Shown piece by piece: positions 31,325 through 48,494 of a stretch of DNA of 64,000 bases. Source of the stretch: Gammaproteobacteria bacterium (GTDB lineage Bacteria; Pseudomonadota; Gammaproteobacteria; JABABF01); contig OZ250153.1 of assembly GCA_965237805.1 (NCBI GenBank), positions 352,001 to 416,000 on the forward strand, in the 5' to 3' direction. The position numbers and the translations under genes were made by a program. Under the pieces are notes generated by a model. It saw only the letters and a program-made list of their open reading frames with translations, had not been told where the DNA came from and did no database searches. Position 1 is the stretch's first letter; the number at the start of each line of letters is the position of its first letter.

Positions 31325-31397
31325 GGGGTGGGGGGGATGGTGATAGACTAGTCGCAAGGCTTTAGATTTCCGCACCTTATGGAGGACAGATTGAGAT

Positions 31398-32591
31398 ATG
31401 AGCGCTCGCCCGAAAGTTCCGAGAAATAGTGAACGCCAGCTATGGAGTGAATCCATGGGCTATTGCGCAAACCCCAAATGCAACACACGCCTGCTCCTTG
31501 AAAGTTCAACGAAATCCATTGCGCATATGGCGCATATTAAGCCGCATTCACAACATGGTGCTGACTCCCATGAAAACCTCATTTTGCTCTGCAGGAACTG
31601 TCACAAGCAACATGAACCTGCCGATTACCCCGAAGCAGAGACAACCCTAAGGGAGTGGAAAATAAATCTCCCCCAGAGAAACGCAAGCCATTTCGCAGTG
31701 AAGTTCAATACATTTGATGATTTAGCCGAACAGGTTCGCCCACTATTTTCAAGGAATTATCAGATTTTCAGGAATTACGGGCCACATACTAATGATCATG
31801 ATGCGCACAAAATTTGGAAGCGTTTTGAGGAGGAATTGATTGCAAACAATGCGATGCTCCAACTTCATCTCAGAGAGAACATTGATCTGTTCAACTCATC
31901 GGATAAAAATGTGATTAACAGCTTTATCATACATGTCGATGAATTCACCAATACCAGAGTGGGATTCAATGGTATGAGGAAGAAATTATTTCCCAATAAA
32001 ATATTGTCAATTCTTAATATTGAAGAAGAAGATATCAGCCCCCAGAGAAGCTCCACCAATGTATACTTGAAAGATATCCAATGCCTTCAGAGTGTCATAA
32101 AAAAACTCAAACAAGAAGAACGATTCATAGATTTAAAGATAGTTCCAGACACATATTTGACCTTCACTGAAAACGGAGAAAAGATAGTTCTACATATTGA
32201 TGGAGACAAAAGCATCCTCAGAAAAATGGTGAAGAAACTTTTCCCGACGATTCTGGTCGGAGACGAAGCCAAAACATATATAGAGCTGGATGGTTTGAAG
32301 TGCATCTTAAACGTGCTAAATAAAAATAGCGCAAAATGGGAGTTTGAAGATCTCACAGATCTAACCATAATCACTATTAAAGAAAGGTTTAGGATAAAAC
32401 TCTTCTATAATTATATCATCACAGATTTTGATTTGCAAAACACTGTCAATTTGAAATCGGTGCGCTATGTAGCAAATATGTATCATTGGAATGGTGGCAA
32501 GGCAGACGATGACGCGCTAGAATACGCACAAGGTATTGGAGTGAAAGTTATGAACTCAACAGAATTAATGAGATTTTGCGCTAATATTTGA
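31398..32591 (+). CDS. HNH endonuclease domain protein with unrecognised C-terminal domains
   Basis: 'LW..S.GYCANPKC....AHI.P.S..G....ENLILLC.NCH' zinc-binding HNH. Confidence 0.8.
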   Translation: MSARPKVPRNSERQLWSESMGYCANPKCNTRLLLESSTKSIAHMAHIKPHSQHGADSHENLILLCRNCHKQHEPADYPEAETTLREWKINLPQRNASHFAVKFNTFDDLAEQVRPLFSRNYQIFRNYGPHTNDHDAHKIWKRFEEELIANNAMLQLHLRENIDLFNSSDKNVINSFIIHVDEFTNTRVGFNGMRKKLFPNKILSILNIEEEDISPQRSSTNVYLKDIQCLQSVIKKLKQEERFIDLKIVPDTYLTFTENGEKIVLHIDGDKSILRKMVKKLFPTILVGDEAKTYIELDGLKCILNVLNKNSAKWEFEDLTDLTIITIKERFRIKLFYNYIITDFDLQNTVNLKSVRYVANMYHWNGGKADDDALEYAQGIGVKVMNSTELMRFCANI

Positions 32592-32881
32592 AGGTGAGCA
32601 TTGCTGAGGATAGATTTTGGTTGAATAGAGTGGAAATATTCCATGCTTTCAACGAAGTGTATTTATTTGGATCCTCTCTATCAGAAAATTGTCCTAAAGA
32701 CATTGATCTAATTTTAGTCTATGATTCAAGGGATATTGCAACGATTAAAGATTGCCACAATGCGATCAACCGAGAAATATTTGAGCATTTTTCTATAGAA
32801 GCGCATTTGCTCATCCTTACTGCAGCTGAAAAGCAACAAACCAAGTTCCTAAATATAGTGCGCAATAAAAGAATAAAATGA
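32588..32881 (+). CDS. Minimal (MNT-like) Pol-beta superfamily nucleotidyltransferase
   Basis: 'VYLFGSS......KDIDLILV' GS...DxD motif; 97 aa; 4-nt overlap with the HNH gene stop. Confidence 0.78.
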   Translation: MKVSIAEDRFWLNRVEIFHAFNEVYLFGSSLSENCPKDIDLILVYDSRDIATIKDCHNAINREIFEHFSIEAHLLILTAAEKQQTKFLNIVRNKRIK

Positions 32882-32939
32882 ATGCAATCATCGGGCGCTA
32901 CAAGATACCTCTTGCAGGGCGCACCTGCTGTCTTTCCTG

Positions 32940-33668
32940 CTAAGTATCACCACTCACCCGCCAACTCTCCGCCGACAGTGGCAGTTCGTTCAGCTCTGCC
33001 CTAGCCTCACGCCAACTCGGATAGTGCGTGCCCAGCAAGTCGAAGAAGCGCTCGCTGTGGGTCGGCTCAAGCAGGTGCAGCAGCTCGTGGAGGATCACAT
33101 AGTCCAATAGCTGTTTGGGTTTCTTCACCAGCTCCGTATTGAGGCGAATATTCCCCGCACGGTAATTGCATCCCCCCCACTTCGTTTTCATGCGCTGTAG
33201 GAAGTAGCTGGCAACGCTCACACCGAGCTTCTCTTCCCATTTTCTGATGAGCGGTGGCACAGCCTCATGCAGCAAGCCCTTGTGCCATGCATGCATGACT
33301 TCCCCCCGTTTGGCCTTGGTACTGCCGGGGCGCACGTTGAGCGTGATCCTGCGATGGCTGAGGTGAACACAGGGTTTGGCCTCCTGCTCGACGACCGACA
33401 GCAGATAACGCCGCCCCCAGAGGTAATGGCTCTCCCGCTCGATGAACTGACGGGGAGTCTCACGCGCCTGCTGGAGCAAACTGCCCTGATGGCGACGAAT
33501 CCAGGCGAGCCTAGAAATGGCATAGGCCCGCGCCACCTCTGGACGGGTGCCGATGGGCACGACCAGCGTGATACGCCCAGTTGGCGGGTGTACCGACAGA
33601 TGGACATGCTTGACGGCCTTGCGCGTCATCGCAATGGCGAGCTCACCGAGCTGGATCGTCTCGGCCAT
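32940..33668 (-). CDS. M48/YgjP (DUF45) zinc metallopeptidase-like protein associated with type I R-M
   Basis: 'MKTKWG.CN', 'IRLN.EL', 'YVILHELLHL.E..H...F'; coupled to hsdR. Confidence 0.88.
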   Translation of the reverse strand: MAETIQLGELAIAMTRKAVKHVHLSVHPPTGRITLVVPIGTRPEVARAYAISRLAWIRRHQGSLLQQARETPRQFIERESHYLWGRRYLLSVVEQEAKPCVHLSHRRITLNVRPGSTKAKRGEVMHAWHKGLLHEAVPPLIRKWEEKLGVSVASYFLQRMKTKWGGCNYRAGNIRLNTELVKKPKQLLDYVILHELLHLLEPTHSERFFDLLGTHYPSWREARAELNELPLSAESWRVSGDT

Positions 33669-36600
33669 CAGTACTCCGGCTGGTACTTGATGAGCTCAAA
33701 GAGCTCCTTCGTCGCCTGCCGGTTCCCCTCAAGCAACGGAAACAACGCATTCAACACCTGTGCCTCACGCGCTTGATCGCCTCTCCACCCCGCAGGTGCT
33801 TGCTCGCGTATAGCAAGGTCAATTTTCAAGGTCAGCTCGACCCGCTCATCCATATAGGCTAGGCCTATATCGGCCACCTTGCCCGCCCGCTCCCCTGCCG
33901 CAGCGAGAATATCTGGCAGGTTGCGGTAAATCACCTGAGCCGCATGGTTGCCATGTAGCGCCGCTGGCACACCCTCATTGGGTTGCTGCTCTACCAAGCG
34001 ATTGGCCAGTTCCTCCGCCTGCAGCAGCAACTCCTCGTAGTCCTTGGTGTCCGCACGGCTCTGCGCGATGAGGTCGTCGAGCAACTGCGACATCTGCTCG
34101 TAGAAGCGAGGGTCCGTGAGCTGCTCGCGAATGATGGTCTTGCGGATGTTGTTGATGATCCCTTCGGCGACGGCTTGCTTGGAAAGCTTGCCCTTGGCAT
34201 TGAGCTTCTTGGCAATGGCATCGTGAATACCGGTTTCAACGATCAGTTCGATCAGCGAGCGCTCGCTCAGCGCGCCCAGCTCTGCCGCTGCATCGGCCTG
34301 AATATAGGTATTGATGAGGTAGCGCATATCCGCCTCGTAGGGTTTGATATCGAGTTCCTCTCCCGAGTGCTTCTTGATGGCCGCACGGAGTTCCTCGTGG
34401 TGTGCGAGCTCCGCCCGCAACTCCCGCACTTCGGCATCGCTATAACCGGCTTCGCTGAGATCCCCGGCGATGGCCGCAAAGCTGCGGGCCAAGGTCGCCA
34501 CATCCTTGTAGAAGGATATCCGCAGCACTTCGCTCTCGCGTAGTGCATTCGAATCATTGGCGTCGCCGCAGAAATAGCACAAGAACTGTTCAAACTCTCG
34601 CGGTTGCGCCACTGGCTCGCACAGATAATGCAAGGCCTCCCGCGCCGCTTCCAGCTTCTGTTTGCCTTCTATCAGCCAATCCTTGAGCTCGACATTGTTG
34701 CCACCGCTGCCGCCCTCATCGGTGTCTAACTCGTCGGAGTTGTAGACGGCGATCGCCTCTTGCACATTGCCGAACAGCTGTTTGAAATCCACGATGTGGC
34801 CGTAGTCCTTGTCCTCGCCATCGAGCCGATTGGTGCGACAGATAGCTTGGAATAGATTGTGGTCACGCAATTCCTGGTCGAGGTAGATATAGGTACAGCT
34901 CGGCGCATCAAAGCCAGTCAGCAGCTTGCTGACGACAATCAGCAGCTTCATATTCGCTGGCTCTTCAATAAAACAGCGCTTGACCTCGTCCTCGTACTGC
35001 CTAGTAGTCTGGCCGTCTCTTAGAACATGCTTGGTATAGGTGTCAAACTTGAAACGCTCGTCGCTGTTGGCGGGTTCGCGCGAGATTGCATTGTGGTTCG
35101 GCTCGTAGGAGGTGATGATCCCGCACGGTGGGGCGAGCGCTGTGTTCTGAAACAGCCGGAAGTAATGACAGGCGTCATAGATTGAAGCGGATACGAGGAT
35201 CGCCGTGCCACGGTCGTTGCTCAGCCGTGGCTTGAAGTTGAAATCTTCAATGATGCTGGCAATGATGCGTTCCTTGCGATCTTCAGCACTCATCAACTCC
35301 TTCATCGTCGCCCAGTGCTTGCGCAGTACCGCCTGCTGGAAATTGTTGAGGCTCTGCGTCTTCTGCTCAAACCACCGGTCAATGGATTTTGCTGAAGTCA
35401 AGCGTTGCGGTACATCGCGGGCCTCGTATTTGAGATCGAGGATGATGCGGTCGGCCACTCCTTCGTGAAACTTGTAGGTATGGATGCAAGTACCGAAGAC
35501 CTCCCGCGTCATCTTTTTATCTCGACGCAGGAGCGGCGTCCCCGTGAAGCCGACAAAGATCGCGCCCGGTAGCCAGCGTTTCATCTGCTGGTTCATAGCT
35601 CCGCCCTGTGTACGGTGGCATTCGTCCACGAACACATAGAAGTGCCCGACCACAGGCGGGGGATCACCCCTGAGGTCGCTGGGTTCAAACTTGTGGATCA
35701 ACGCGCACAGGAGGCGCGGTGTGGGCGCTGCGATCTTCGCCACGAACTCCGCCCGCGAAGTGATGCGCGGCGCAGGGGAGTCGGCTGCGATGACCCCAGC
35801 ACTTTTCATCACCCCTTCGATCTGCTTGTCCAGCTCATCGCGATCGGTGATGATGAGGATGCGCGCCTCAGCGTCATGCTCCAACAGCCACTTGGCGAGC
35901 AATACCATCAGAATGCTCTTGCCACTGCCCTGCGTGTGCCAAATAACCCCGCCCTCTCGCTTGGCGATGCGCTCCTGAGCCACCTTCACACCGAAGAACT
36001 GGTGTGGCCTCGGCAGTTTCTTCTGACCCGCATCAAAGATGATGAAGTGGCGCAGCAAGTCGAGCAGCCGCTCCTTGTGGCACAGCTGCGCCAATGGCCG
36101 GTCGAGCTGTGAGCCAATGGTAGGTTCCGGCTCGGAGCTTGCTTCTTCGTCTTGCCATTGCACGAAGAACTGCTCCGGTGTGCCAGTGGTGCCGTAACGC
36201 AATCCTTGCGAGTCGCTGCCCGCCAGCAATAGTTGCACGGTGCTAAAGAAGCCCTGGTTGAAGATCTCCTCTTGGTTGGTGATGAGCTGGCGCACGCCGT
36301 CACCCACTTCCACCGAGCTGCGCTTGAGCTCGATCACCGCGATGGCGATGCCGTTGATGTAAAGCACCAGATCGGGTCGGCGTTCGTGGCCGCCTTTCAG
36401 CGTCACCTCCTCGGCGAGGGCGAAGTCGTTGTTTTCCGGATGCTTCCAGTCAATCAGGTGTACTGTCTCATGCGCCTGCCCTGCGGCAATCTGCACAGGG
36501 ACGCCATAGCGCATGAGCTGGTAGCTGCGCAGATTGGCTTGGTAGAGTGTGATGCCTGTTGAGTCGGCGGCGGTCTCTAGCTTTTGCCGGGCGGCAGAGA

Positions 36601-36790
36601 TGTGGGCATCCGTGTAGCCGCGAGACAGCAGATTATCGCGGAGGATCTCTGTTTCGATGTGGCGGTTGTTGTCGCGCTTGCTCCAGTCACCGAGGTAGCG
36701 ATAGCCGAGGCAGTCCTTTCGCGCTGGGTCGGTGAATAAGGCGATGACGCGATGCTGCGTCTGACGCTCGGAGCGGGGTTGTTGAGGCAT
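33668..36790 (-). CDS. hsdR: Type I restriction endonuclease subunit R
   Basis: '[18 protein letters not shown]', 'WHTQGSGKS', 'DECHR', 'GFTGTP', 'LLTGFDAP', 'QAICRTNR'. Confidence 0.95.
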
Positions 36791-36811: not shown

Positions 36812-38071
36812 CTAGTTGGTAGCGTCCAATCCGCTCTGTGAACGCGCAGGCACCACCACCCGCAAGTAGTCGTCGGTCGGATCAAAGAGCGCTTCTTTCC
36901 CTGAGTATTGCTGCGTCAGCGGCACGATCTTAAGGCGCACCCCCATACCGCGCGCATCCACATAACCATAGTCGCGCATGACATCCACAATCATCGTATT
37001 GCGTGGTGAGCGCTGCCCAGCCAACATTTTCTCAACGGTCATCGCGTTTTGTAGTGCGCCGGGGCTGGTCACTTCCAGACGGTCGGAATAGTTGACCACC
37101 TCCACCTCTATCGCTCGCGTCCAGTCGCGGTGAACCAGTGCATTGAGCAACACCTCACGCATTGCTTCCCCTGGATAGCGATGGACCGATTCTCGGCGCA
37201 AGCCCGCATTGATTGTGCTGCCTTCCTCCGAGATGAACGGGCGCATGCGATCGATGAGATCTTCAATCAATCCACCCTTGACGATGTGTCGCCCAGCGCC
37301 GGGCTCGCCATCCCACAACGCCACCAACGGGCCATCCAGCACCGTGTCGTCCTGAGCCTGATACTCTTTGCTATCGCCAGCAAAAGACATCCACCGCACT
37401 CCCCCGCAACGCAGGCGACGGCGCGGACTATGCCCAAACAGTACCAAGCCAGCAATGCTGCACGCGACAGACTGATCGGGGCGGCGTACCATAAAACCCA
37501 AGCCGATCAAGCGCTCTTCCCAATCTGCATCAGCCTGTGGCACCATCGGGTCGCTGGCAAGATTGAGCAGATAATCACTGAGGCGTGCTCTATCGAGGTC
37601 ATTCAGGCTGCTGCCAGAAACCGGAAGACTCTCTGTGTGCAGTAATCCACCGCTGTCGAATAGCCGAGCTTGCTGCTCTCGTGATGCAAGGCGTGAAGTG
37701 CTGCCTACGCGCACATAAATCTCTTCGCGTCCTTTATGGCGCAACACATAGGGCTTATTGATGCCTTGGTCCAGTGAAATGACCGCCACCCGCTGGCCGT
37801 CGTTGCACACCACTTCCTCGTAAAACGGCGTGGCCTGCGGGTGGATGTATTGGCCAAACACCGTGTCCATCACCAAGGTTTCCAGGTCGGCACGTTGGAT
37901 GCCACTAATGGTGCCGTCATCTTCCACCCCCAACAGCAATTTCCCACCCCGAAAATTGAGCAACGCAACAATCGCTTTGCCCAGCTGCTCTGGGCGCAAG
38001 TCATCACGTTTGAATTCCACACCAGAGTTTTCACCATTGGCGATGATCTCCAGTAATTCAGATTTCAGCAT
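36812..38071 (-). CDS. Schlafen/AlbA_2 domain plus HATPase_c_4 (RecG-C-like) protein
   Basis: 'GENSGVEFK', 'A.LN..GG.LLLGVEDDG.I.G', 'RE.L.NALVHRDW', 'DRLEV.SPG', 'RN', 'GMG'. Confidence 0.88.
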   Translation of the reverse strand: MLKSELLEIIANGENSGVEFKRDDLRPEQLGKAIVALLNFRGGKLLLGVEDDGTISGIQRADLETLVMDTVFGQYIHPQATPFYEEVVCNDGQRVAVISLDQGINKPYVLRHKGREEIYVRVGSTSRLASREQQARLFDSGGLLHTESLPVSGSSLNDLDRARLSDYLLNLASDPMVPQADADWEERLIGLGFMVRRPDQSVACSIAGLVLFGHSPRRRLRCGGVRWMSFAGDSKEYQAQDDTVLDGPLVALWDGEPGAGRHIVKGGLIEDLIDRMRPFISEEGSTINAGLRRESVHRYPGEAMREVLLNALVHRDWTRAIEVEVVNYSDRLEVTSPGALQNAMTVEKMLAGQRSPRNTMIVDVMRDYGYVDARGMGVRLKIVPLTQQYSGKEALFDPTDDYLRVVVPARSQSGLDATN

Positions 38072-38202
38072 CAGAGCAACCTTTGGCAATCGTATTGTTG
38101 TTTTTCACTGAATACACGCATCGCGCCTACCTTCAAGGATATTCGCCATTTGCTTGCTCCAGATGTCGCACATCAGTGCCGAGTGAGTGATATACAGCAT
38201 AA

Positions 38203-41906: not shown

Positions 41907-42659
41907 TCAATCACCGTTCACTAAGCGACGAGCATTGTCAGCAATGCTCGCACATAGATCGTGAAATGGGATGTCTAAGAGTGTGGACATGTGTGAAACA
42001 ACAGCAGAAACATCGCCTGCACCAACAGGATGCCCATCGATTTTCAAGAAAGGTGCATCTGTCTCTGTAAGGAGTCTATTAATGGGTGCTCGATTCACCA
42101 GTAATTTCCCATTCGTAGAATCTATCAATTTCTGGTTAATTGAGAAGTAGCATCCTAGATTAATCGCTCTGTCCAGCTCCGTTTTCCCCGCAGAAAACCA
42201 ATGCAGGACCACATCGCATGACTTGGCAACGGAATGCTTTTCAATCGCATCAAGCACATGACGAGCACATCGCACACTATGCACACTAAGGACTTTCCCG
42301 CCTTCTCTAGCGCAAACATACAAAGCTCTATCGAAAAATTGTTTTTGCCTATCAAATGACGGATAGTGGCATTTACCAGCATCTAATCCGATTTCACCGA
42401 TAAATCGAGCTCTAAGAGCGAGATGTTCAAACAATTCAATTTCGTGACCATACTCTGCAACCAGTTGGGGATGCAACCCTAATGCGGCATGTACATGTTG
42501 CGTACTAGTGGCACACTCTAGATTCTGTAGGTAAACTCCAGGGGTTGTAGTCACTGACAACGTGGTACAACCGATCGCATCACAACGCTCATAGGCAGCA
42601 TATACATCAGGCATGAGGTCGAGATGACAGTGAAAATCGACAGGGCTCCGGATGTTCAT
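41907..42659 (-). CDS. qatD: Qat anti-phage system TatD-family nuclease
   Basis: 'DFHCHLDL', 'GLHP', 'GEIGLD', 'HWFS', 'LTETDAP'; last gene of the qat operon. Confidence 0.9.
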   Translation of the reverse strand: MNIRSPVDFHCHLDLMPDVYAAYERCDAIGCTTLSVTTTPGVYLQNLECATSTQHVHAALGLHPQLVAEYGHEIELFEHLALRARFIGEIGLDAGKCHYPSFDRQKQFFDRALYVCAREGGKVLSVHSVRCARHVLDAIEKHSVAKSCDVVLHWFSAGKTELDRAINLGCYFSINQKLIDSTNGKLLVNRAPINRLLTETDAPFLKIDGHPVGAGDVSAVVSHMSTLLDIPFHDLCASIADNARRLVNGD

Positions 42660-44026
42660 ATTATACGGGGTTTTAGCCGCACACCTTGGAGAAAGTTTGT
42701 CATTTCCGACATGCCCCGTGTATATAAATCGGCATACTCACCAACCAAAGATGCAGGGATCTTTCCTGGAATTTTGACCAAGAATCTTGCTTTCCTCGGA
42801 TCTGTGTTGAGTGTCTCGGCGGCGTACAAGAATGACCAAATATCTTTACCTTCAGCTTTAGTAGAAATTAGAGGGCGAGCATGAAGGTCGTCGAGCCAAT
42901 ATTTGGTTTTATCGTCAACTGGAAGACCAGCTGACAACGCTGCACGTCGAATCAGGCAAGGCACACAATAACCACAATGTTGTGGCCTCTCTCCCTTGCG
43001 TCTAATTTTTTCTGGAGCAGAGCAGGACATAGAACGGCAGGCTATTTTAGAAAGAAATTGGATATTTTGACACTCTCTCACCATCTCTCCTTTTGTCTTA
43101 AAGCAGTACGGATTTTCAAAGGTAATTTTCTGATCAAAAATAGATGTGAGCTCTGTCATACAGTCAAGAAAGAAAGGATGGGTAGTTCGCGTGCTAAGCG
43201 CACCTAAACGCAAAGGATCCAAAGGCACATTCAATGCGATCAAGCCATTCTCAGGAACGATTACTTTATTTAATGTTGGGAGTGCATTTGCTGCCAACGC
43301 AGCCATAGCATAGAACAAAAAACTTCGAGAACGTTGCGTCGGCTCAACGCCTTCGGTGCACAAACTCTGCTTATCAAATCCGATGCGAGAACGAATCGAA
43401 ATAAATGCTTCTTTACCATAATGCTGCTCCATTGATTGAAGCACACGCTGCTGTGCTGCAGATGCTGCCCCACTCCAGTAATGACTTATCAATATTGGAG
43501 TCTTGTATCTAGACAATAAATCTATAGCGCCAATCAGACTATCCAGCCCCCCTGAAAACAATGCCACTGCATCGGGAGATGACGGTGCCAAGCTTGCTGG
43601 TATACGCGCCAACAATCTACAAGAGTCCGGACGGGATCGAAAACAGAAAGTCCATGAATCACCCGTCAAAAATTTCAGCATCATAGAGAGATGCGTGCCC
43701 ATGCCACTCCAAGCAGATGGATCACTAACTGGAATATATAGTTTAATCTGACGAGTCCATCGATCCTCAGAATAAATTTTTCGCAATACACGAGTATCAG
43801 CCGCCCAAACTGTTGCGGCAATGATCAATAGATCAATAGACTTTTCACATGGATTTAGATCCCAACAGCATAACTTATCCAATAGACCAGAAAGGCCACA
43901 TTTCAGTTTAGATGTATTGTTGGAATCCACAAAATCAACTTGCAGAACACCTTCCAAATGAGACAAGGAAGATCTTCCAAGATAATCGTTTTTCCCCAAT
44001 TTTGCTATTAATTTCACATCCATCAT
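42656..44026 (-). CDS. qatC: Qat anti-phage system QueC-like protein
   Basis: 'AADT......W.R', 'LFSGGLDS', 'E..QRSRSFLF', 'PENG.I.LN.PL...R.G..STRTTHP', 'KTKGEM', 'CG.C.PC.IRRA'. Confidence 0.92.
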   Translation of the reverse strand: MMDVKLIAKLGKNDYLGRSSLSHLEGVLQVDFVDSNNTSKLKCGLSGLLDKLCCWDLNPCEKSIDLLIIAATVWAADTRVLRKIYSEDRWTRQIKLYIPVSDPSAWSGMGTHLSMMLKFLTGDSWTFCFRSRPDSCRLLARIPASLAPSSPDAVALFSGGLDSLIGAIDLLSRYKTPILISHYWSGAASAAQQRVLQSMEQHYGKEAFISIRSRIGFDKQSLCTEGVEPTQRSRSFLFYAMAALAANALPTLNKVIVPENGLIALNVPLDPLRLGALSTRTTHPFFLDCMTELTSIFDQKITFENPYCFKTKGEMVRECQNIQFLSKIACRSMSCSAPEKIRRKGERPQHCGYCVPCLIRRAALSAGLPVDDKTKYWLDDLHARPLISTKAEGKDIWSFLYAAETLNTDPRKARFLVKIPGKIPASLVGEYADLYTRGMSEMTNFLQGVRLKPRII

Positions 44027-44727
44027 CGGGCCTTTAGGCAAGCATCGAGAATCGTAAACGAATTGGCGAACACTCTAATCATTAGCGAATGTATTCTTCC
44101 TGGTATTAAATTCGGAGCCCATAATCGTTCAGATCTAATAGCATCACGAACAGAACGTAATGTGTAATCATGCAATGTTGCTTCAGCTTTTTGAAAATGT
44201 TCATTGCTCAAAGAACGATGGAGACTTTTTGTGGCAATTTCATTAATAACCTTTAATATAATGCATTGTGCTATAACATCAGCCACAAATTCTTCAAGCT
44301 GATCGGCATCAAGGTCTTCGAAATTAATGATATTGTCCGAATCAAACTTAGCAGCGGCCATCAACATGGCCGCGCGCGAAACTGGTGCATCAATGAAGCC
44401 GCTGCCAGGGCACAGCATATCTGTGAGCTCATCGAGAACTTCGGCTACGGGTCGACCGACCATTCCCTCTAATTGAAATATCTGTAATGCTTCCGTCGGA
44501 CCAGTTATGACAAACTGGTTCGCAAAGTGAACGAGGGAGGAAGCTAGTTGTGTAGATCCGGGCATGCGCCGAGCTGCTCCCGCACCGCCACCTGCACCCT
44601 CAAGATAGTCAGATATAGCATGCGAGAGATGTGAGAGCTGGGTCGCACCGCCATGAATAAATTTGGTGAAGTTTCTCCGAGCATTAGTAAATTCAGGCGA
44701 CCCGGAGCTGGTGCTAGATGTTCCCAT
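44023..44727 (-). CDS. qatB: Qat anti-phage system protein QatB
   Basis: 'MGTS' N-terminus, 'F..AR.NFTKF', 'GG..GAARRM', 'L...LCP..G..D....R.A'; between qatA and qatC. Confidence 0.85.
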   Translation of the reverse strand: MGTSSTSSGSPEFTNARRNFTKFIHGGATQLSHLSHAISDYLEGAGGGAGAARRMPGSTQLASSLVHFANQFVITGPTEALQIFQLEGMVGRPVAEVLDELTDMLCPGSGFIDAPVSRAAMLMAAAKFDSDNIINFEDLDADQLEEFVADVIAQCIILKVINEIATKSLHRSLSNEHFQKAEATLHDYTLRSVRDAIRSERLWAPNLIPGRIHSLMIRVFANSFTILDACLKAR

Positions 44728-44732
44728 TGATG

Positions 44733-46673
44733 CTATTCCGGCCTTTGCTTAATAGCAAGTATGGCGGCCATCTGAAGCGGCGTATTGGTATCTTGGTCAG
44801 CCCAATCATGAATGAGCCTGTCGAGATTGTTCTTCGGTTTTGTTTCAGTAATAGAATCATCCCAACCAATAACAGCCCAAGGACCTATTTTATCAGTTGG
44901 GAGTTCTGACAACATGGAGACAGTTCGGCTCTGAAGTGATGGATACACCTTACATAATTCGGCTAGACCGTCAATGCCACTAGGTTGCCTCTTGAAGTCG
45001 GGAGCTGACTGTATTGTTCGCACAACCGCGTTGAACACCTGCTCTATAACGGAATCAGGCTGTTTGCATATTTCCTTGGAAACAAATTTGGCACCCATTT
45101 TTGATCCACATAGCTTCTCAACCCATTCTTGAATCAACGACAATGTCGATGTCGCGGTAAACACAGATTTTCGATCACGAGAAATAAACAGATAGGGACG
45201 AATATCTTGAGAGCTAAGGGGTGGATCCAGTCTTGCCCAACGATTGGCCCATTCGTTTTTCTTCCATTCATCCTGGCTACTATCCTCTGTCTGATTAAGT
45301 TTTATAGCTTTTGTCCATCTATCTCCTTTACTCTTTTTTCCGGCACCTTTAACCATGTGATTGCCAGTGGGATGCGCATGTGTTTCCAGCATCTGTATTG
45401 TTGGCGATTTTCCGGTTGCAGTGGCTTCTCGCTCTACTTGCTCAAAAAATCGTGGCTCAAAGCGTTCGGCGAGCATGAGTTTGGCGAGTACCGCTTTATT
45501 AATCGCTGATTCGATACCGCGTTGCGACGCGATAGTGAGACGAAGGTGCATCGTATTGAGAAAACGCTTAATCTGACGAGGATTGCCTCTGGCACCGTCC
45601 GTCAACAATGGAGCGATCTGGTCAGCGAGTTGTAGTGCAGATTCAACCTCTGGCGGTATTTCCCCAAATTTCTCAACCAAGAGTGAACGATCGAAGCCCT
45701 CTCCTACCCACGGTTCTCGCAAGACGTCACGAGCGATCTCGATCAAATTTCTAAAAACAGGGTGATCCTCACCCAAATGCAGACTGGCATTAAGTAGCGT
45801 TATGTAGGTGCGAGTTTCCACGTACCCCAACGGGGGTAGCCTGAACGGCACCTGTATTAGCTTTTCCAAATAGTTTCGTGCATACGACATAGCCCCACTG
45901 TCAGCTGGTAGGTTAGGAAAATGCTGCGTCACTGCATACTCAATCATTGTTTCATCGGCAGCAATGACGAATGCTGCACCTGGCACAAATAGAAACAACC
46001 GAATGGCTTCGAGTGTCTCTAGTGCTGTCGATGGCAAGCAGCGGTCAAGGTCATCAACTACAACAACTAGCCACTTAATGTTCGCTGCTTCGAGGAGATC
46101 TCTGAACTCATCTCTAAAAGCGTGGATATGCGTGGGGATAGTATCGGGAGTGTCAGCTTTGAGCATCGACCCAGCGTCGGAAACAAAGCCAGCAAGCGCA
46201 CCCATGCTAAGTGCCCCCTCCTGCCCGCAGAGCCCCTTTGCAGCCGCTAAAATATCCTTAGCCTGTTCGACTGTCCGCATCCCCGTCGTGGCTGTCACTG
46301 TCAAGCCTCCCAACTGCCGTGCCAACTTCATCCAGTCAACGCGCTTCAGAACTTTAGCTGCTTTTTCTTTAAGCCCATCCGTTTGTGGTCGATTCCGTAG
46401 TAATTCATCAACGATGGTTTCAATCAATACCGCTTTAGTGTCTTCAAACCCTTGAAAGAGCCAACCATTAAAGCGGATACAGAGCGTATCATCTTCACCA
46501 GCAAATGCTTGCTCCAGCATCATTAGAATGCTTGATTTACCGGCACCCCAATCACCGTGAACCCCGACAGTTAGTGGCTTATCGCCAGACTGCTTGAGTA
46601 ACTCAACAATCGTCCCAGCAATAGCCTCGTAATAGAGCAGGTCGACAGCCGTCTCGTTGTCGGGGATAATCAT
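44733..46673 (-). CDS. qatA: Qat anti-phage system KAP-family P-loop NTPase
   Basis: 'DNET..DLL', 'GVHGDWGAGKSS', 'FNGW.F', 'VDDLDRC.P', 'YLEKLIQVPF', 'NPRQIKRFLN'. Confidence 0.92.
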   Translation of the reverse strand: MIIPDNETAVDLLYYEAIAGTIVELLKQSGDKPLTVGVHGDWGAGKSSILMMLEQAFAGEDDTLCIRFNGWLFQGFEDTKAVLIETIVDELLRNRPQTDGLKEKAAKVLKRVDWMKLARQLGGLTVTATTGMRTVEQAKDILAAAKGLCGQEGALSMGALAGFVSDAGSMLKADTPDTIPTHIHAFRDEFRDLLEAANIKWLVVVVDDLDRCLPSTALETLEAIRLFLFVPGAAFVIAADETMIEYAVTQHFPNLPADSGAMSYARNYLEKLIQVPFRLPPLGYVETRTYITLLNASLHLGEDHPVFRNLIEIARDVLREPWVGEGFDRSLLVEKFGEIPPEVESALQLADQIAPLLTDGARGNPRQIKRFLNTMHLRLTIASQRGIESAINKAVLAKLMLAERFEPRFFEQVEREATATGKSPTIQMLETHAHPTGNHMVKGAGKKSKGDRWTKAIKLNQTEDSSQDEWKKNEWANRWARLDPPLSSQDIRPYLFISRDRKSVFTATSTLSLIQEWVEKLCGSKMGAKFVSKEICKQPDSVIEQVFNAVVRTIQSAPDFKRQPSGIDGLAELCKVYPSLQSRTVSMLSELPTDKIGPWAVIGWDDSITETKPKNNLDRLIHDWADQDTNTPLQMAAILAIKQRPE

Positions 46674-46952
46674 TGACCGCATCTTACTCATGGCATCTTC
46701 CGATTTGGATGGCACAGGATACAAGCACACTAAGGAACGTCCGATTGATTATCCGCTCAGAAAAATGATAGGTCAATAGTCTCTTCTGCATCTACAACAC
46801 GAGGTGAAACCTTCAGCCTCTGGCAGCTAGAGAATAGACAGAGTACCTTATTCAGGCTTCACTTGAAAACCATAGCCCCCATCCAACCCTGAATCGGCCA
46901 TAATATCCACTGCCACACCGCCCACCCGCACCACTGCCCCACCCTTTGCGCC

Positions 46953-48494
46953 ATGAGCACCAAATACCTCAACTTGCCCGCCGCCAAACTGGTCGAGCTC
47001 GCCTTGCAACGGGGCGAGGGACGGCTGTCGGATACCGGTGCTCTCGTCGTCGAGACCGGCAAGCGCACCGGGCGCTCGCCGCTCGACCGCTATATCGTCC
47101 AGGAACCCGCCACCGAAAATGATATCGATTGGGGCAAGATCAACCGTCCCTTCGAGCGCGAGCGCTTCGATGCGCTGTGGAACCGCCTGCAGAGCTATCT
47201 CGGGCAGCGCGACCATTTCTGTGCCGAATTGCACTGCGGAGCCAATCCCGACCACTGCGTTCCGATCGAGGTGAAATCGGAAACCGCCTGGCACTGCCTG
47301 TTCGCACACAATATGTTCGTGCACCCAACGCGTTTCAACCCCAACCGGCAAGCCGTGTGGCAGGTGATCAACGCCGCCCACTTCGAGTGCGAGCCAAAAC
47401 GCGATGGCACCCACAGCGATGGTGCCGTGATCATCGATTTTGTCGGCCATCGGGTCTTGCTGGCCGGGATGCGCTATGCCGGCGAGATGAAAAAAGCCAT
47501 GTTCTCGGTGCAGAACTACCTGTTGGTCGAGCGCAATGTGCTGCCGATGCACTGTGCCGCCAATGTCGATGAGCAGGATCGGGTCTCGCTGCTGTTCGGC
47601 CTGTCCGGCACTGGCAAAACCACGCTGTCGGCAGATCCGGAATGCTATCTGATCGGCGATGACGAGCACGGCTGGGCCGAGGGCTCGGTCTTCAATCTGG
47701 AAGGCGGTTGCTATGCCAAGTGCATCAATCTGGATCAAACCCGTGAACCGGTGATCTGGAAGGCGATCCGCTTTGGTGCCATCCTCGAGAATGTGGCGCT
47801 GGACGAAAACAGCTTGGCGGTCGATTACAACGACAGTGGTCGCACCGAAAACACGCGCTGCTGCTATCCCTTAGAGCATGTGGAAAGGCGTGTGCCCGGC
47901 GGCAGTGCCGACGAGCCAGAAGCCGTGATATTCCTCACCTGCGATGTCAGCGGTGTGCTGCCGCCGGTGTCGATGCTGTCGCGAGCAGCCGCCGCCTACC
48001 ATTTCCTCAGCGGCTACACCGCCAAGGTCGGCGGCACCGAGCTGGGAGTCAAGGGCATCCAATCGACTTTTTCCACCTGCTTTGGCGCTCCCTTCTTCCC
48101 GCGCCCGGCGGGTGTCTACGCCGAGCTGCTGATGCAGCGCATGCGCAAATTCGATAGCTCCGCCTATCTGGTCAACACCGGCTGGACCGGCGGCCCCGGC
48201 ACCCCTGGGGGCACCGGCCAGCGCTTCGATATTCCGGTGACGCGCGCCATCATCACCGCCATCCAAACCGGTGGCTTGAAAGATGTTGGACGACATCAGC
48301 TCAAGCAGTTGAATTTGGATATTCCCAAAGCCGTGCCCGGTGTCGACAGCAAAATATTGCAACCGCGCCAGACCTGGCAGGACGGCAAAGAATACGATCG
48401 CTATGCGAAGGATTTGATCGGGCGTTTTGCCGAAAATTTCAAGCGCTTTGATGTGCCGGACGACATCATCGCCGCTGGCCCCCAAGCTGCCTGA
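46953..48494 (+). CDS. pckA: Phosphoenolpyruvate carboxykinase (ATP)
   Basis: 'TGRSP.D', 'YAGEMKK', 'LPMHC.AN', '[11 protein letters not shown]', 'IGDDEHGW', 'EGGCYAK'. Confidence 0.96.

Follow-up and report, generated by a model that had tools for sequence, protein, structure and literature searches.

In the type VII toxin-antitoxin (TA) system HepT/MntA, the nucleotidyltransferase (NTase) MntA (motif GSX10DXD) neutralises the toxin HepT by adding three AMPs to its Tyr104, and an ATP analogue is bound between both proteins (PMC7641770). In Hailong (HalA channel and HalB NTase), the NTase is constitutively active, and a tyrosine-primed poly-dA shuts the effector until a phage exonuclease removes the poly-dA (reviewed in PMC13434031). 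SPARHA (short prokaryotic Argonaute (pAgo), HNH-associated) uses an HNH domain as immune DNase effector (PMC12738770), and the cyclic oligonucleotide-based antiphage signalling system (CBASS) combines the HNH effector Cap5 with a cGAS/DncV-like NTase (CD-NTase). Here we describe a gene pair, located at positions 31398 to 32881 of a 64,000-nucleotide window from a gammaproteobacterium (GenBank assembly GCA_965237805.1, contig OZ250153.1, positions 352,001 to 416,000 of the forward strand), which encodes an HNH protein and a minimal NTase and resembles each of these systems in part. We consider it highly probable that the two genes encode a genuine conflict module of two dedicated proteins; its most likely kind is an anti-phage system of the abortive-infection type that follows the logic of toxin-antitoxin systems.

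As a preliminary description of this DNA had suspected, the pair matched no named system in PADLOC v2, NCBIfam or Pfam. The literature searched contained no description of an HNH + NTase module, either directly or via the PDC labels of PADLOC, papers outside the searched set and supplements not being covered, and the excerpts of a survey on bacteriophage exclusion (BREX; PMC12839542) mention HNH and MNT-HEPN separately only. The features of the pair are as follows.

31398..32591, + strand: effector gene, an open reading frame (ORF) of 397 amino acids (aa) with ATG start, predicted to encode an HNH nuclease, a four-helix bundle and a two-lobed C-terminal domain
31398..31694, + strand: HNH (beta-beta-alpha-Me) domain, residues 1-99, with zinc ligands C23/C28/C65/C68 and the predicted catalytic residues H46 (codon 31533-31535), N60 and H69
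31698..32018, + strand: four-helix bundle, residues 101-207, from the secondary structure of the AlphaFold2 (AF2) model
32064..32279, + strand: small alpha/beta lobe of the C-terminal domain, residues 223-294, from the C-domain model and barely tested by the fold lists
32280..32588, + strand: restriction-endonuclease-like lobe, residues 295-397, with invariant T323, Y339 (codon 32412-32414), N360 and W364
32588..32881, + strand: NTase gene, an ORF of 97 aa with TTG start, predicted to encode a minimal Pol-beta nucleotidyltransferase

Gene pair, relatives and the split form

Both ORFs, their 4-nt overlap and the motifs quoted in the preliminary description were recovered as given there. The overlap is formed by TTGA, in which the TTG start of the NTase gene is shared with the TGA stop of the 397-aa ORF. 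The database gene call P0001 is shorter (378 aa, start at M20); the ATG at 31398, which has a GGAGG upstream, is considered the better start because the 19 residues dropped by P0001 (residues 1-19, encoded by 31398-31454) are conserved in the relatives.

A word-indexed search of 5.8 billion proteins returned 18 relatives of the large protein, 14 of them near full length with 31-42% identity, and the alignment of 15 family members shows conservation over its whole length. Scanning a single genome for each species yielded 70 loci, among which L001-L014 match the whole protein and L015-L046 match residues ~1-207 only. Regarding the full-length relatives, an NTase ORF (93-134 aa, with GS and DxD motifs) is located directly 3' of the HNH gene in 14/14; its start is at most a few bases away from the HNH stop codon, the 4-nt overlap being usual, and the identity of the downstream NTases is 27-37%. 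Going by the titles of the records, the loci were found in Dehalococcoidia and other Chloroflexota, Opitutales, Nitrospirales, Ca. Foliamicus, Ca. Poriferihabitaceae and Peptoniphilus. The pairing of homologues, on which the preliminary description had staked its proposal, is strict and far beyond chance. On a Clostridium megaplasmid, RefSeq lists the same pair as "HNH endonuclease signature motif containing protein" and "nucleotidyltransferase domain-containing protein", and the Prokaryotic Genome Annotation Pipeline (PGAP) independently annotates the pair, as well as the three-gene form described below, on plasmids. (Note that at L001:5926-7176 and L014:5797-7157 the HNH gene is found in two ORFs with the NTase intact, by decay or by a frameshift from long-read assembly.)

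The TTG start, the lack of any entry sharing words with the small ORF in the protein collection and a score below the Pfam cutoff would fit a chance open frame in AT-rich DNA, with the HNH gene standing alone. The probability of this reading is negligible, as position and sequence of the NTase are kept in 14/14 relatives across phyla with invariant catalytic residues, and PGAP annotates the NTase in relatives; the conserved downstream NTase, the invariant motif and the matches in 32/32 split loci given below refute it.

In 32 loci (L015-L046) the module is a trio in the order HNH-helical protein, ~215-aa middle protein and NTase. The split HNH-helical protein measures ~221-289 aa (one of 373 aa), and a 210-238-aa gene comes next after it in 25/32 loci under the ORF filter used. 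Matches to a hidden Markov model (HMM) of the NTase family follow directly after the middle gene in 32/32 loci (28 at E <= 3.2e-4 and 4 at 0.0016-0.13), and elsewhere in the 70 loci this HMM had no match apart from L052. The middle protein belongs to no Pfam, PADLOC or NCBIfam family (PADLOC: none in 3/3 tested), and no NCBIfam model reached its cutoff with the window pair or with nine split and fused proteins. The C-terminal half of the middle protein was aligned by hhalign with the last ~100 residues of the 397-aa protein (probability 84%, E 7e-6), and with higher probability when an alignment of 131 middle proteins was used (92.6%, E 4.5e-7; 131 of the 150 best representatives, 195-235 aa kept, clusters at 50% identity); its N-terminal half aligned to no part of the 397-aa protein. 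Because its C-terminal domain is, by this profile comparison, homologous to the middle protein, the window HNH gene is identified as the trio's first two genes joined into one.

The two-gene fused form is the rarer one and the three-gene split form the commoner. With the middle-protein profile, 580 cluster representatives (50% identity) were found at E <= 1e-3 among 1.84 billion, 223 of them at E <= 1e-30. One protein, P0123 (331 aa), is a natural fusion of middle protein and NTase (NTase HMM E 2.5e-13, residues 257-324). Another middle-protein homologue, P0130 (292 aa), carries at its N-terminus the C-terminal part of an NTase-like sequence, i.e., in the order opposite to P0123, and may represent either another fusion architecture or a gene call that is truncated. 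The split trio occurs on plasmids of Ensifer, Rhizobium, Vibrio, Phaeobacter and Polymorphobacter. On an Ensifer plasmid (L073, 17-8801) it is flanked by genes for a 1356-aa P-loop NTPase, DUF2971 and DUF4238 proteins and an integrase, and looks like a small mobile defence islet. In phage genomes, tblastn with the fused protein or with the split middle protein matched nothing.

Domain architecture in comparison with described systems

The AF2 model of the 397-aa protein was built from 15 family members and has a mean predicted local distance difference test (pLDDT) value of 81. The preliminary description had proposed an N-terminal zinc-binding HNH domain of the Cap5 effector type, and Pfam, PADLOC, Protein Data Bank (PDB) sequence matches and VIA-align all support this assignment. 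The sole Pfam family in the protein is HNH (PF01844; residues 40-72, 31.7 bits versus a cutoff of 21.4, E 1.7e-7). PADLOC profiles of Cap5-type CBASS effectors (E 1e-8), SAVED_HNH and PDC-M68A match residues ~3-110 only. Among solved structures, sequence matches of the HNH domain were to the SPARHA HNH (9om4, E 1.2e-10, residues 10-107) and Cap5 (7rwm, E 6.6e-8), and structural alignment with Cap5 (7rwk) by VIA-align gave a Z of 10.1 and an rmsd (root-mean-square deviation) of 2.7 over 91 residues. Foldseek of the whole AF2 model against the PDB gave no match at E <= 0.001, the top-ranked matches being to the HNH domain only. C23, C28, C65, C68, H46, N60 and H69 are invariant in 15/15 family members and in 47/47 fused and split relatives. 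By these matches the protein is assigned to the HNH (beta-beta-alpha-Me) superfamily, Cap5/SPARHA class, with the residues predicted for catalysis and zinc binding intact.

The middle part, described before as helical, is a four-helix bundle in the AF2 model. Residues N120, G128, P129, W140, N150, N161, H179 and P199 are invariant in 47/47 fused and split sequences. The bundle has no Pfam, NCBIfam or PADLOC family, and VIA-align returned generic four-helix bundles only (voltage-sensor domains, PsbQ, designed proteins; Z <= 9.5). It contains no conserved Rx4-6H motif, the conserved residues being N120, W140, N150, N161 and H179. Pfam, NCBIfam and PADLOC reported no SAVED or HEPN domain for the pair, in line with the preliminary description, and no Pfam SAVED match was found at E <= 1. 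Tyr127, in the "YGP" motif of the bundle, was considered as a nucleotide acceptor and set aside because it is conserved but not invariant in the 47 fused and split sequences.

The C-domain (residues 223-397), folded alone, has a pLDDT of 86.7 and a predicted template modelling score (pTM) of 0.83. Regarding residues 295-397, VIA-align matched AF1548 (1y88; Z 7.5, rmsd 3.6, 98 aa), NucS (2vld; Z 7.4), Cdn1 (Z 6.9), Can2 (Z 6.4), the nuclease domain of Card1 and XPF/Mus81/ERCC1-type domains (Z 5-6). The earlier comparison of the C-terminus with restriction endonucleases is tentatively supported for the last ~100 residues, whose matches to that fold are consistent but modest. No invariant acidic residue or lysine of the kind expected for PD-(D/E)xK catalysis is present in residues 295-397, and we read the last ~100 residues as a probable fossil, non-catalytic restriction-endonuclease-like domain. 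The ESM Atlas gave no usable match for residues 100-397.

Tyr339 is invariant in 15/15 fused proteins. In the 131-sequence alignment of the middle protein, Tyr161 is the sole 100% column (runners-up 95%), and in the profile alignment it falls on Tyr339, inside a Y-x-L-[S/T] motif common to both. Tyr339 is positioned just past the third strand of the nuclease-like fold in the C-domain model; its secondary structure and the usual layout of the fold would place it in the former active-site cleft. That the two-gene form is fused and the rarer one, that its C-domain is homologous to the middle protein and that the two share a single invariant tyrosine are points added here to the preliminary description.

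In the NTase, the motif residues are G28-S29 (32669-32674), D38 (32699-32701), D40 (32705-32707) and E81 (32828-32830), i.e., GS-X8-DXD plus E81. F27, G28, S29, L31, D38, D40, L43 and E81 are invariant in 14/14 NTase sequences, and the same sequences have no invariant tyrosine. The best orthologue (L012) scores above the Pfam Polbeta cutoff (30.7 versus 26.9 bits). The family profile matched PDB sequences of solved minimal NTases, namely 2rff (E 2.6e-5) and 1ylq (E 0.0036); a weak match was to the MntA antitoxin 5yep (E 0.36). With GS, DxD and a third carboxylate present, the 97-aa protein is recognised from its sequence as a minimal Pol-beta NTase with intact catalytic residues, which agrees with the earlier assignment, as does a size too small for a CD-NTase; no PADLOC cyclase model matched it, the only matches being weak ones to Polbeta and PDC-M63A.

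Pol-beta-fold NTases commonly work on nucleic-acid 3' ends, and MenT/AbiEii-type toxins nucleotidylate tRNA. The NTase might act likewise on DNA or RNA ends, either extending HNH-made nicks or blocking the 3' ends of tRNAs or primers, with both proteins as co-effectors and the fossil nuclease domain holding a DNA end beside the NTase. We regard this as very unlikely: the nearest sequence relatives are the MNT-type minimal NTases (2rff, 1ylq) and not the larger DUF1814 toxins, the 97-aa protein has no evident nucleic-acid-binding surface of its own, and the invariant tyrosine would be left unexplained.

With CBASS (Cap5 and CD-NTase) the pair shares the N-terminal HNH subclass, a regulatory domain after the HNH, an NTase partner of Pol-beta fold and a defence-island location. 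It differs in that no SAVED domain was detected; the Cap5 and SAVED_HNH profiles (368-395 positions) stop near residue ~110, and the four-helix bundle comes next. Its partner has 97 aa, whereas the cyclase has ~300 aa or more, and the NTase gene is here the last one and translationally coupled. With no SAVED domain detected and no CD-NTase, the module is judged to fall outside CBASS.

With the type VII TA system HepT/MntA it has in common a minimal GS...DXD NTase and a nuclease partner with a highly conserved tyrosine, and the window NTase has its nearest relatives among solved minimal NTases of the MNT type. However, the putative toxin is an HNH DNase and not a HEPN RNase, it has no Rx4HxY motif, and the candidate tyrosine is in a restriction-endonuclease-like domain; the NTase motif has a spacing of X8 instead of X10, the MntA model reaches 16 bits where its cutoff asks for 60, and the NTase gene is downstream. 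Lacking HEPN and scoring below the MntA cutoff, the module is placed outside type VII TA, with which it appears to share the logic only.

Of the solved structures, SPARHA (HNH-APAZ, 9om4) matches the HNH domain best by sequence; the rest of that protein is APAZ, in contrast to the bundle and nuclease-like domain found here, and its partner is an Argonaute instead of an NTase. Hailong is likewise a two-gene system, in which a small NTase negatively regulates a toxic effector via a tyrosine-linked nucleotide product, but its effector is a membrane channel, unlike the soluble HNH protein, and the priming tyrosine is on HalB itself (PMC13434031), whereas the window NTase family has no invariant tyrosine; the module is accordingly placed outside Hailong. 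No sequence similarity to HalB was detected among the PDB matches (E <= 10), which is a weak test. Regarding the PADLOC candidate systems, PDC-M68A matched the HNH domain (E 1.9e-11) at profile positions 4-125 of 253 only, and at positions 9-127 of 253 in the split locus L017; the small-NTase models PDC-M63A and PDC-S09, which belong to other candidate systems, matched the NTase weakly (E 2.5e-5 to 1e-2). As these are single-domain matches, no single PDC candidate system covers the module.

Genomic setting and defence neighbourhood

The AT-rich character reported earlier for the 397-aa ORF is evident for the pair from a guanine-plus-cytosine (GC) content of 33-39% over 31700-32900, versus ~60% in both flanks. 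The module is present once in the source genome, which consists of one 1.73-Mb contig, and none turned up when 40 related genomes were searched with the C-domain profile (one of the same genus, two of the family, one of the order and 36 of the class). Because of the low GC relative to the flanks and the absence from these genomes, the gene pair looks recently acquired, by horizontal transfer, and foreign to the genome. Two DNA sequencing runs with the sequence are listed, both from one study; no RNA run is listed.

The 5' neighbour of the HNH gene is a short-chain dehydrogenase gene. On the 3' side the pair converges, as already described, on a type I restriction-modification (R-M) and Qat block, with a YgjP-like metallopeptidase gene followed by hsdR, hsdS, hsdM and then QatDCBA. 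PADLOC assigned hsdR (33668-36790), a SIR2/pAgo-associated-like gene (36812-38089), hsdS, hsdM and a complete QatDCBA (41907-46730). One further feature was obtained by a consensus scan.

32914..32928, + strand: terminator-like hairpin between the convergent NTase and YgjP-like genes

As the region has two terminator-like sites versus 1.5 expected from shuffles, this hairpin is weak evidence.

The gene at 36812-38089 (- strand, 425 aa) is inserted between hsdR and hsdS and matches SIR2/pAgo-associated PNTD profiles of PADLOC (E 1.8e-16); a similar pAgo-like gene of 583 aa adjoins hsdM at L003:509-2257, and its co-location with the pair may recur. A 296-aa ORF (46848-47738, - strand) adjoining QatA is without PADLOC match at E <= 1e-5. 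A low-GC island (about 42-51% GC) extends from ~42000 to ~47000. A perfect 12-nt inverted repeat at 31328-31339, in the gap 5' of the HNH gene, and 33169-33180, inside the YgjP-like gene, is maybe due to chance. Regarding island boundaries, no tRNA was found in 20000-50000, and only short repeats, perhaps chance matches, were present.

Among the relatives, PADLOC matches (E <= 1e-8) were obtained for 28/130 neighbour ORFs in 13/14 fused loci; as in the split loci, the fraction is rough, since neighbour ORFs were picked mechanically, spurious ORFs included. These neighbours comprise type I, IIG and IV R-M, a CBASS cyclase with phospholipase, DRT (defence-associated reverse transcriptase) UG19, HEC-01, HEC-09 and PD-Lambda-2, and in L003 and L004 the pair is inside a type I R-M operon. 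The scan of the split loci covered 102 of 162 candidate ORFs in 20 of 32 loci and gave PADLOC matches (E <= 1e-20) for 11/102 ORFs in 8/20 loci, including AbiE, type I and IV R-M, pAgo, methyltransferases and PDC candidates. Defence islands typically show an enrichment of this sort, which is, however, not uniform here. A separate small NTase of the PDC-S09 type (E 8e-34) with an apparent HEPN-type partner gene is located at L003:2838-3784, 3 kb upstream of the HNH-NTase pair, so that two distinct mini-NTase modules are found in one island.

A non-immune role, either as an addiction (toxin-antitoxin) cassette stabilising an island or plasmid or as a nuclease helping the type I R-M system next to it, would agree with the copies on large plasmids, with the location inside a type I R-M operon in L003 and L004 and next to one in the window, and with the lack of a defence neighbour in 12/20 split loci scanned. 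We consider such a role quite unlikely. The module is seen with type I, IIG and IV R-M, CBASS, DRT, HEC-01, AbiE and pAgo, and also without any R-M; given these many different neighbours, it is self-contained and not an accessory of one system. Addiction and defence are, moreover, not mutually exclusive roles.

Proposed mechanism and meaning for the family

In the mechanism that we propose, the 397-aa protein would be the effector, whose HNH domain would degrade DNA and whose bundle and fossil nuclease-like domain would be regulatory, and the translationally coupled 97-aa NTase would be its dedicated regulator. From a nucleoside triphosphate (NTP), the NTase would transfer a single nucleotide or a few of them onto Tyr339, keeping the HNH nuclease off, and the four-helix bundle may help to bind the NTP, like the helical partner of other minimal NTases. 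Infection would stop the tagging or remove the tag, upon which the untagged protein would cut DNA. This whole sequence of events, in which the NTase nucleotidylates Tyr339 to hold the DNase off and infection relieves the block, is put forward tentatively; we infer that binding takes place, that the tyrosine is the acceptor, in which direction the regulation runs and that there is a defence phenotype. The natural fusion P0123, which joins the NTase to the protein bearing the single invariant tyrosine, supports the proposal, as do the strict pairing, the intact residues of both enzymes and the precedent of HepT/MntA. Complex prediction for the HNH protein (with the alignment of its relatives) and the NTase gave an ipSAE of 0.00 in two runs, which, being without controls, counts neither way.

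Several observations weigh against the nucleotidylation of Tyr339 by a dedicated NTase. The bundle is without a HEPN signature, and VIA-align listed no HEPN for it, although that listing cannot exclude one; without the signature, the analogy to HepT/MntA is therefore one of logic, not homology. The window NTase is below the Pfam Polbeta cutoff (19.1 versus 26.9 bits), the NCBIfam MntA equivalog NF047752 gave 16 bits versus a cutoff of 60 on the best orthologue (L012) and no match on the others, and the word-indexed protein collection returned no entry for the 97-aa ORF, not even itself, which suggests that it is uncalled as a gene there. The match to the restriction-endonuclease fold is modest (best Z 7.5, none >= 8; Foldseek of the C-domain model none at E <= 0.001), and the invariant tyrosine could be structural or ligand-binding instead of a nucleotide acceptor. 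To these are added the roughness of the neighbour fractions and the absence of a recognisable defence neighbour in 12/20 split loci scanned and in 1/14 fused loci (L002).

Alternatively, the mini-NTase might make a diffusible nucleotide or short oligonucleotide that the bundle or the fossil nuclease domain would sense, either as a constitutive 'guard' ligand destroyed or sequestered by phage (Hailong-like) or as an infection-induced activator (CBASS-like). The fossil nuclease fold and the bundle, with its invariant polar residues N120, W140, N150, N161 and H179, offer plausible pockets for a ligand or nucleic acid, the HNH class is switched on by ligand-sensing domains in Cap5, and Hailong sets the precedent of poly-dA holding an effector shut (PMC13434031). 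A diffusible signal nevertheless appears unlikely to us. The 97-aa NTase is without a sensor or regulatory domain and without the C-terminal half of CD-NTases, no PADLOC cyclase model matched it, and HalB was absent from the PDB sequence matches of the NTase profile at E <= 10, a weak test. The translational coupling, the fusion of the NTase to the tyrosine-bearing protein and the tyrosine as the single invariant residue would also be left unexplained.

The nucleotidylation of Tyr339 is thus the mechanism that we carry forward. In its most specific form, a tyrosine-nucleotidyl switch would govern an HNH DNase of the Cap5/SPARHA class, the acceptor would be in a fossil active site, and the module would represent a new, broad anti-phage family with two architectures; that all of this holds together is rather doubtful. 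Such a switch is, as we take it, so far known only for the HEPN RNase toxins of type VII TA. If the role in phage defence is true, a compact system of ~1.5 kb would be added to the catalogue, the covalent nucleotidylation logic of an "enzymatic antitoxin" would be extended from RNases to an immune DNase, and a dead restriction-enzyme domain would have found new use as a handle for regulation. With the fused and split forms now connected, and with the profiles built here, members of the family can be located in genomes. Our reading is that of a real and widespread module, in which a nuclease effector would be guarded by an enzymatic NTase regulator.

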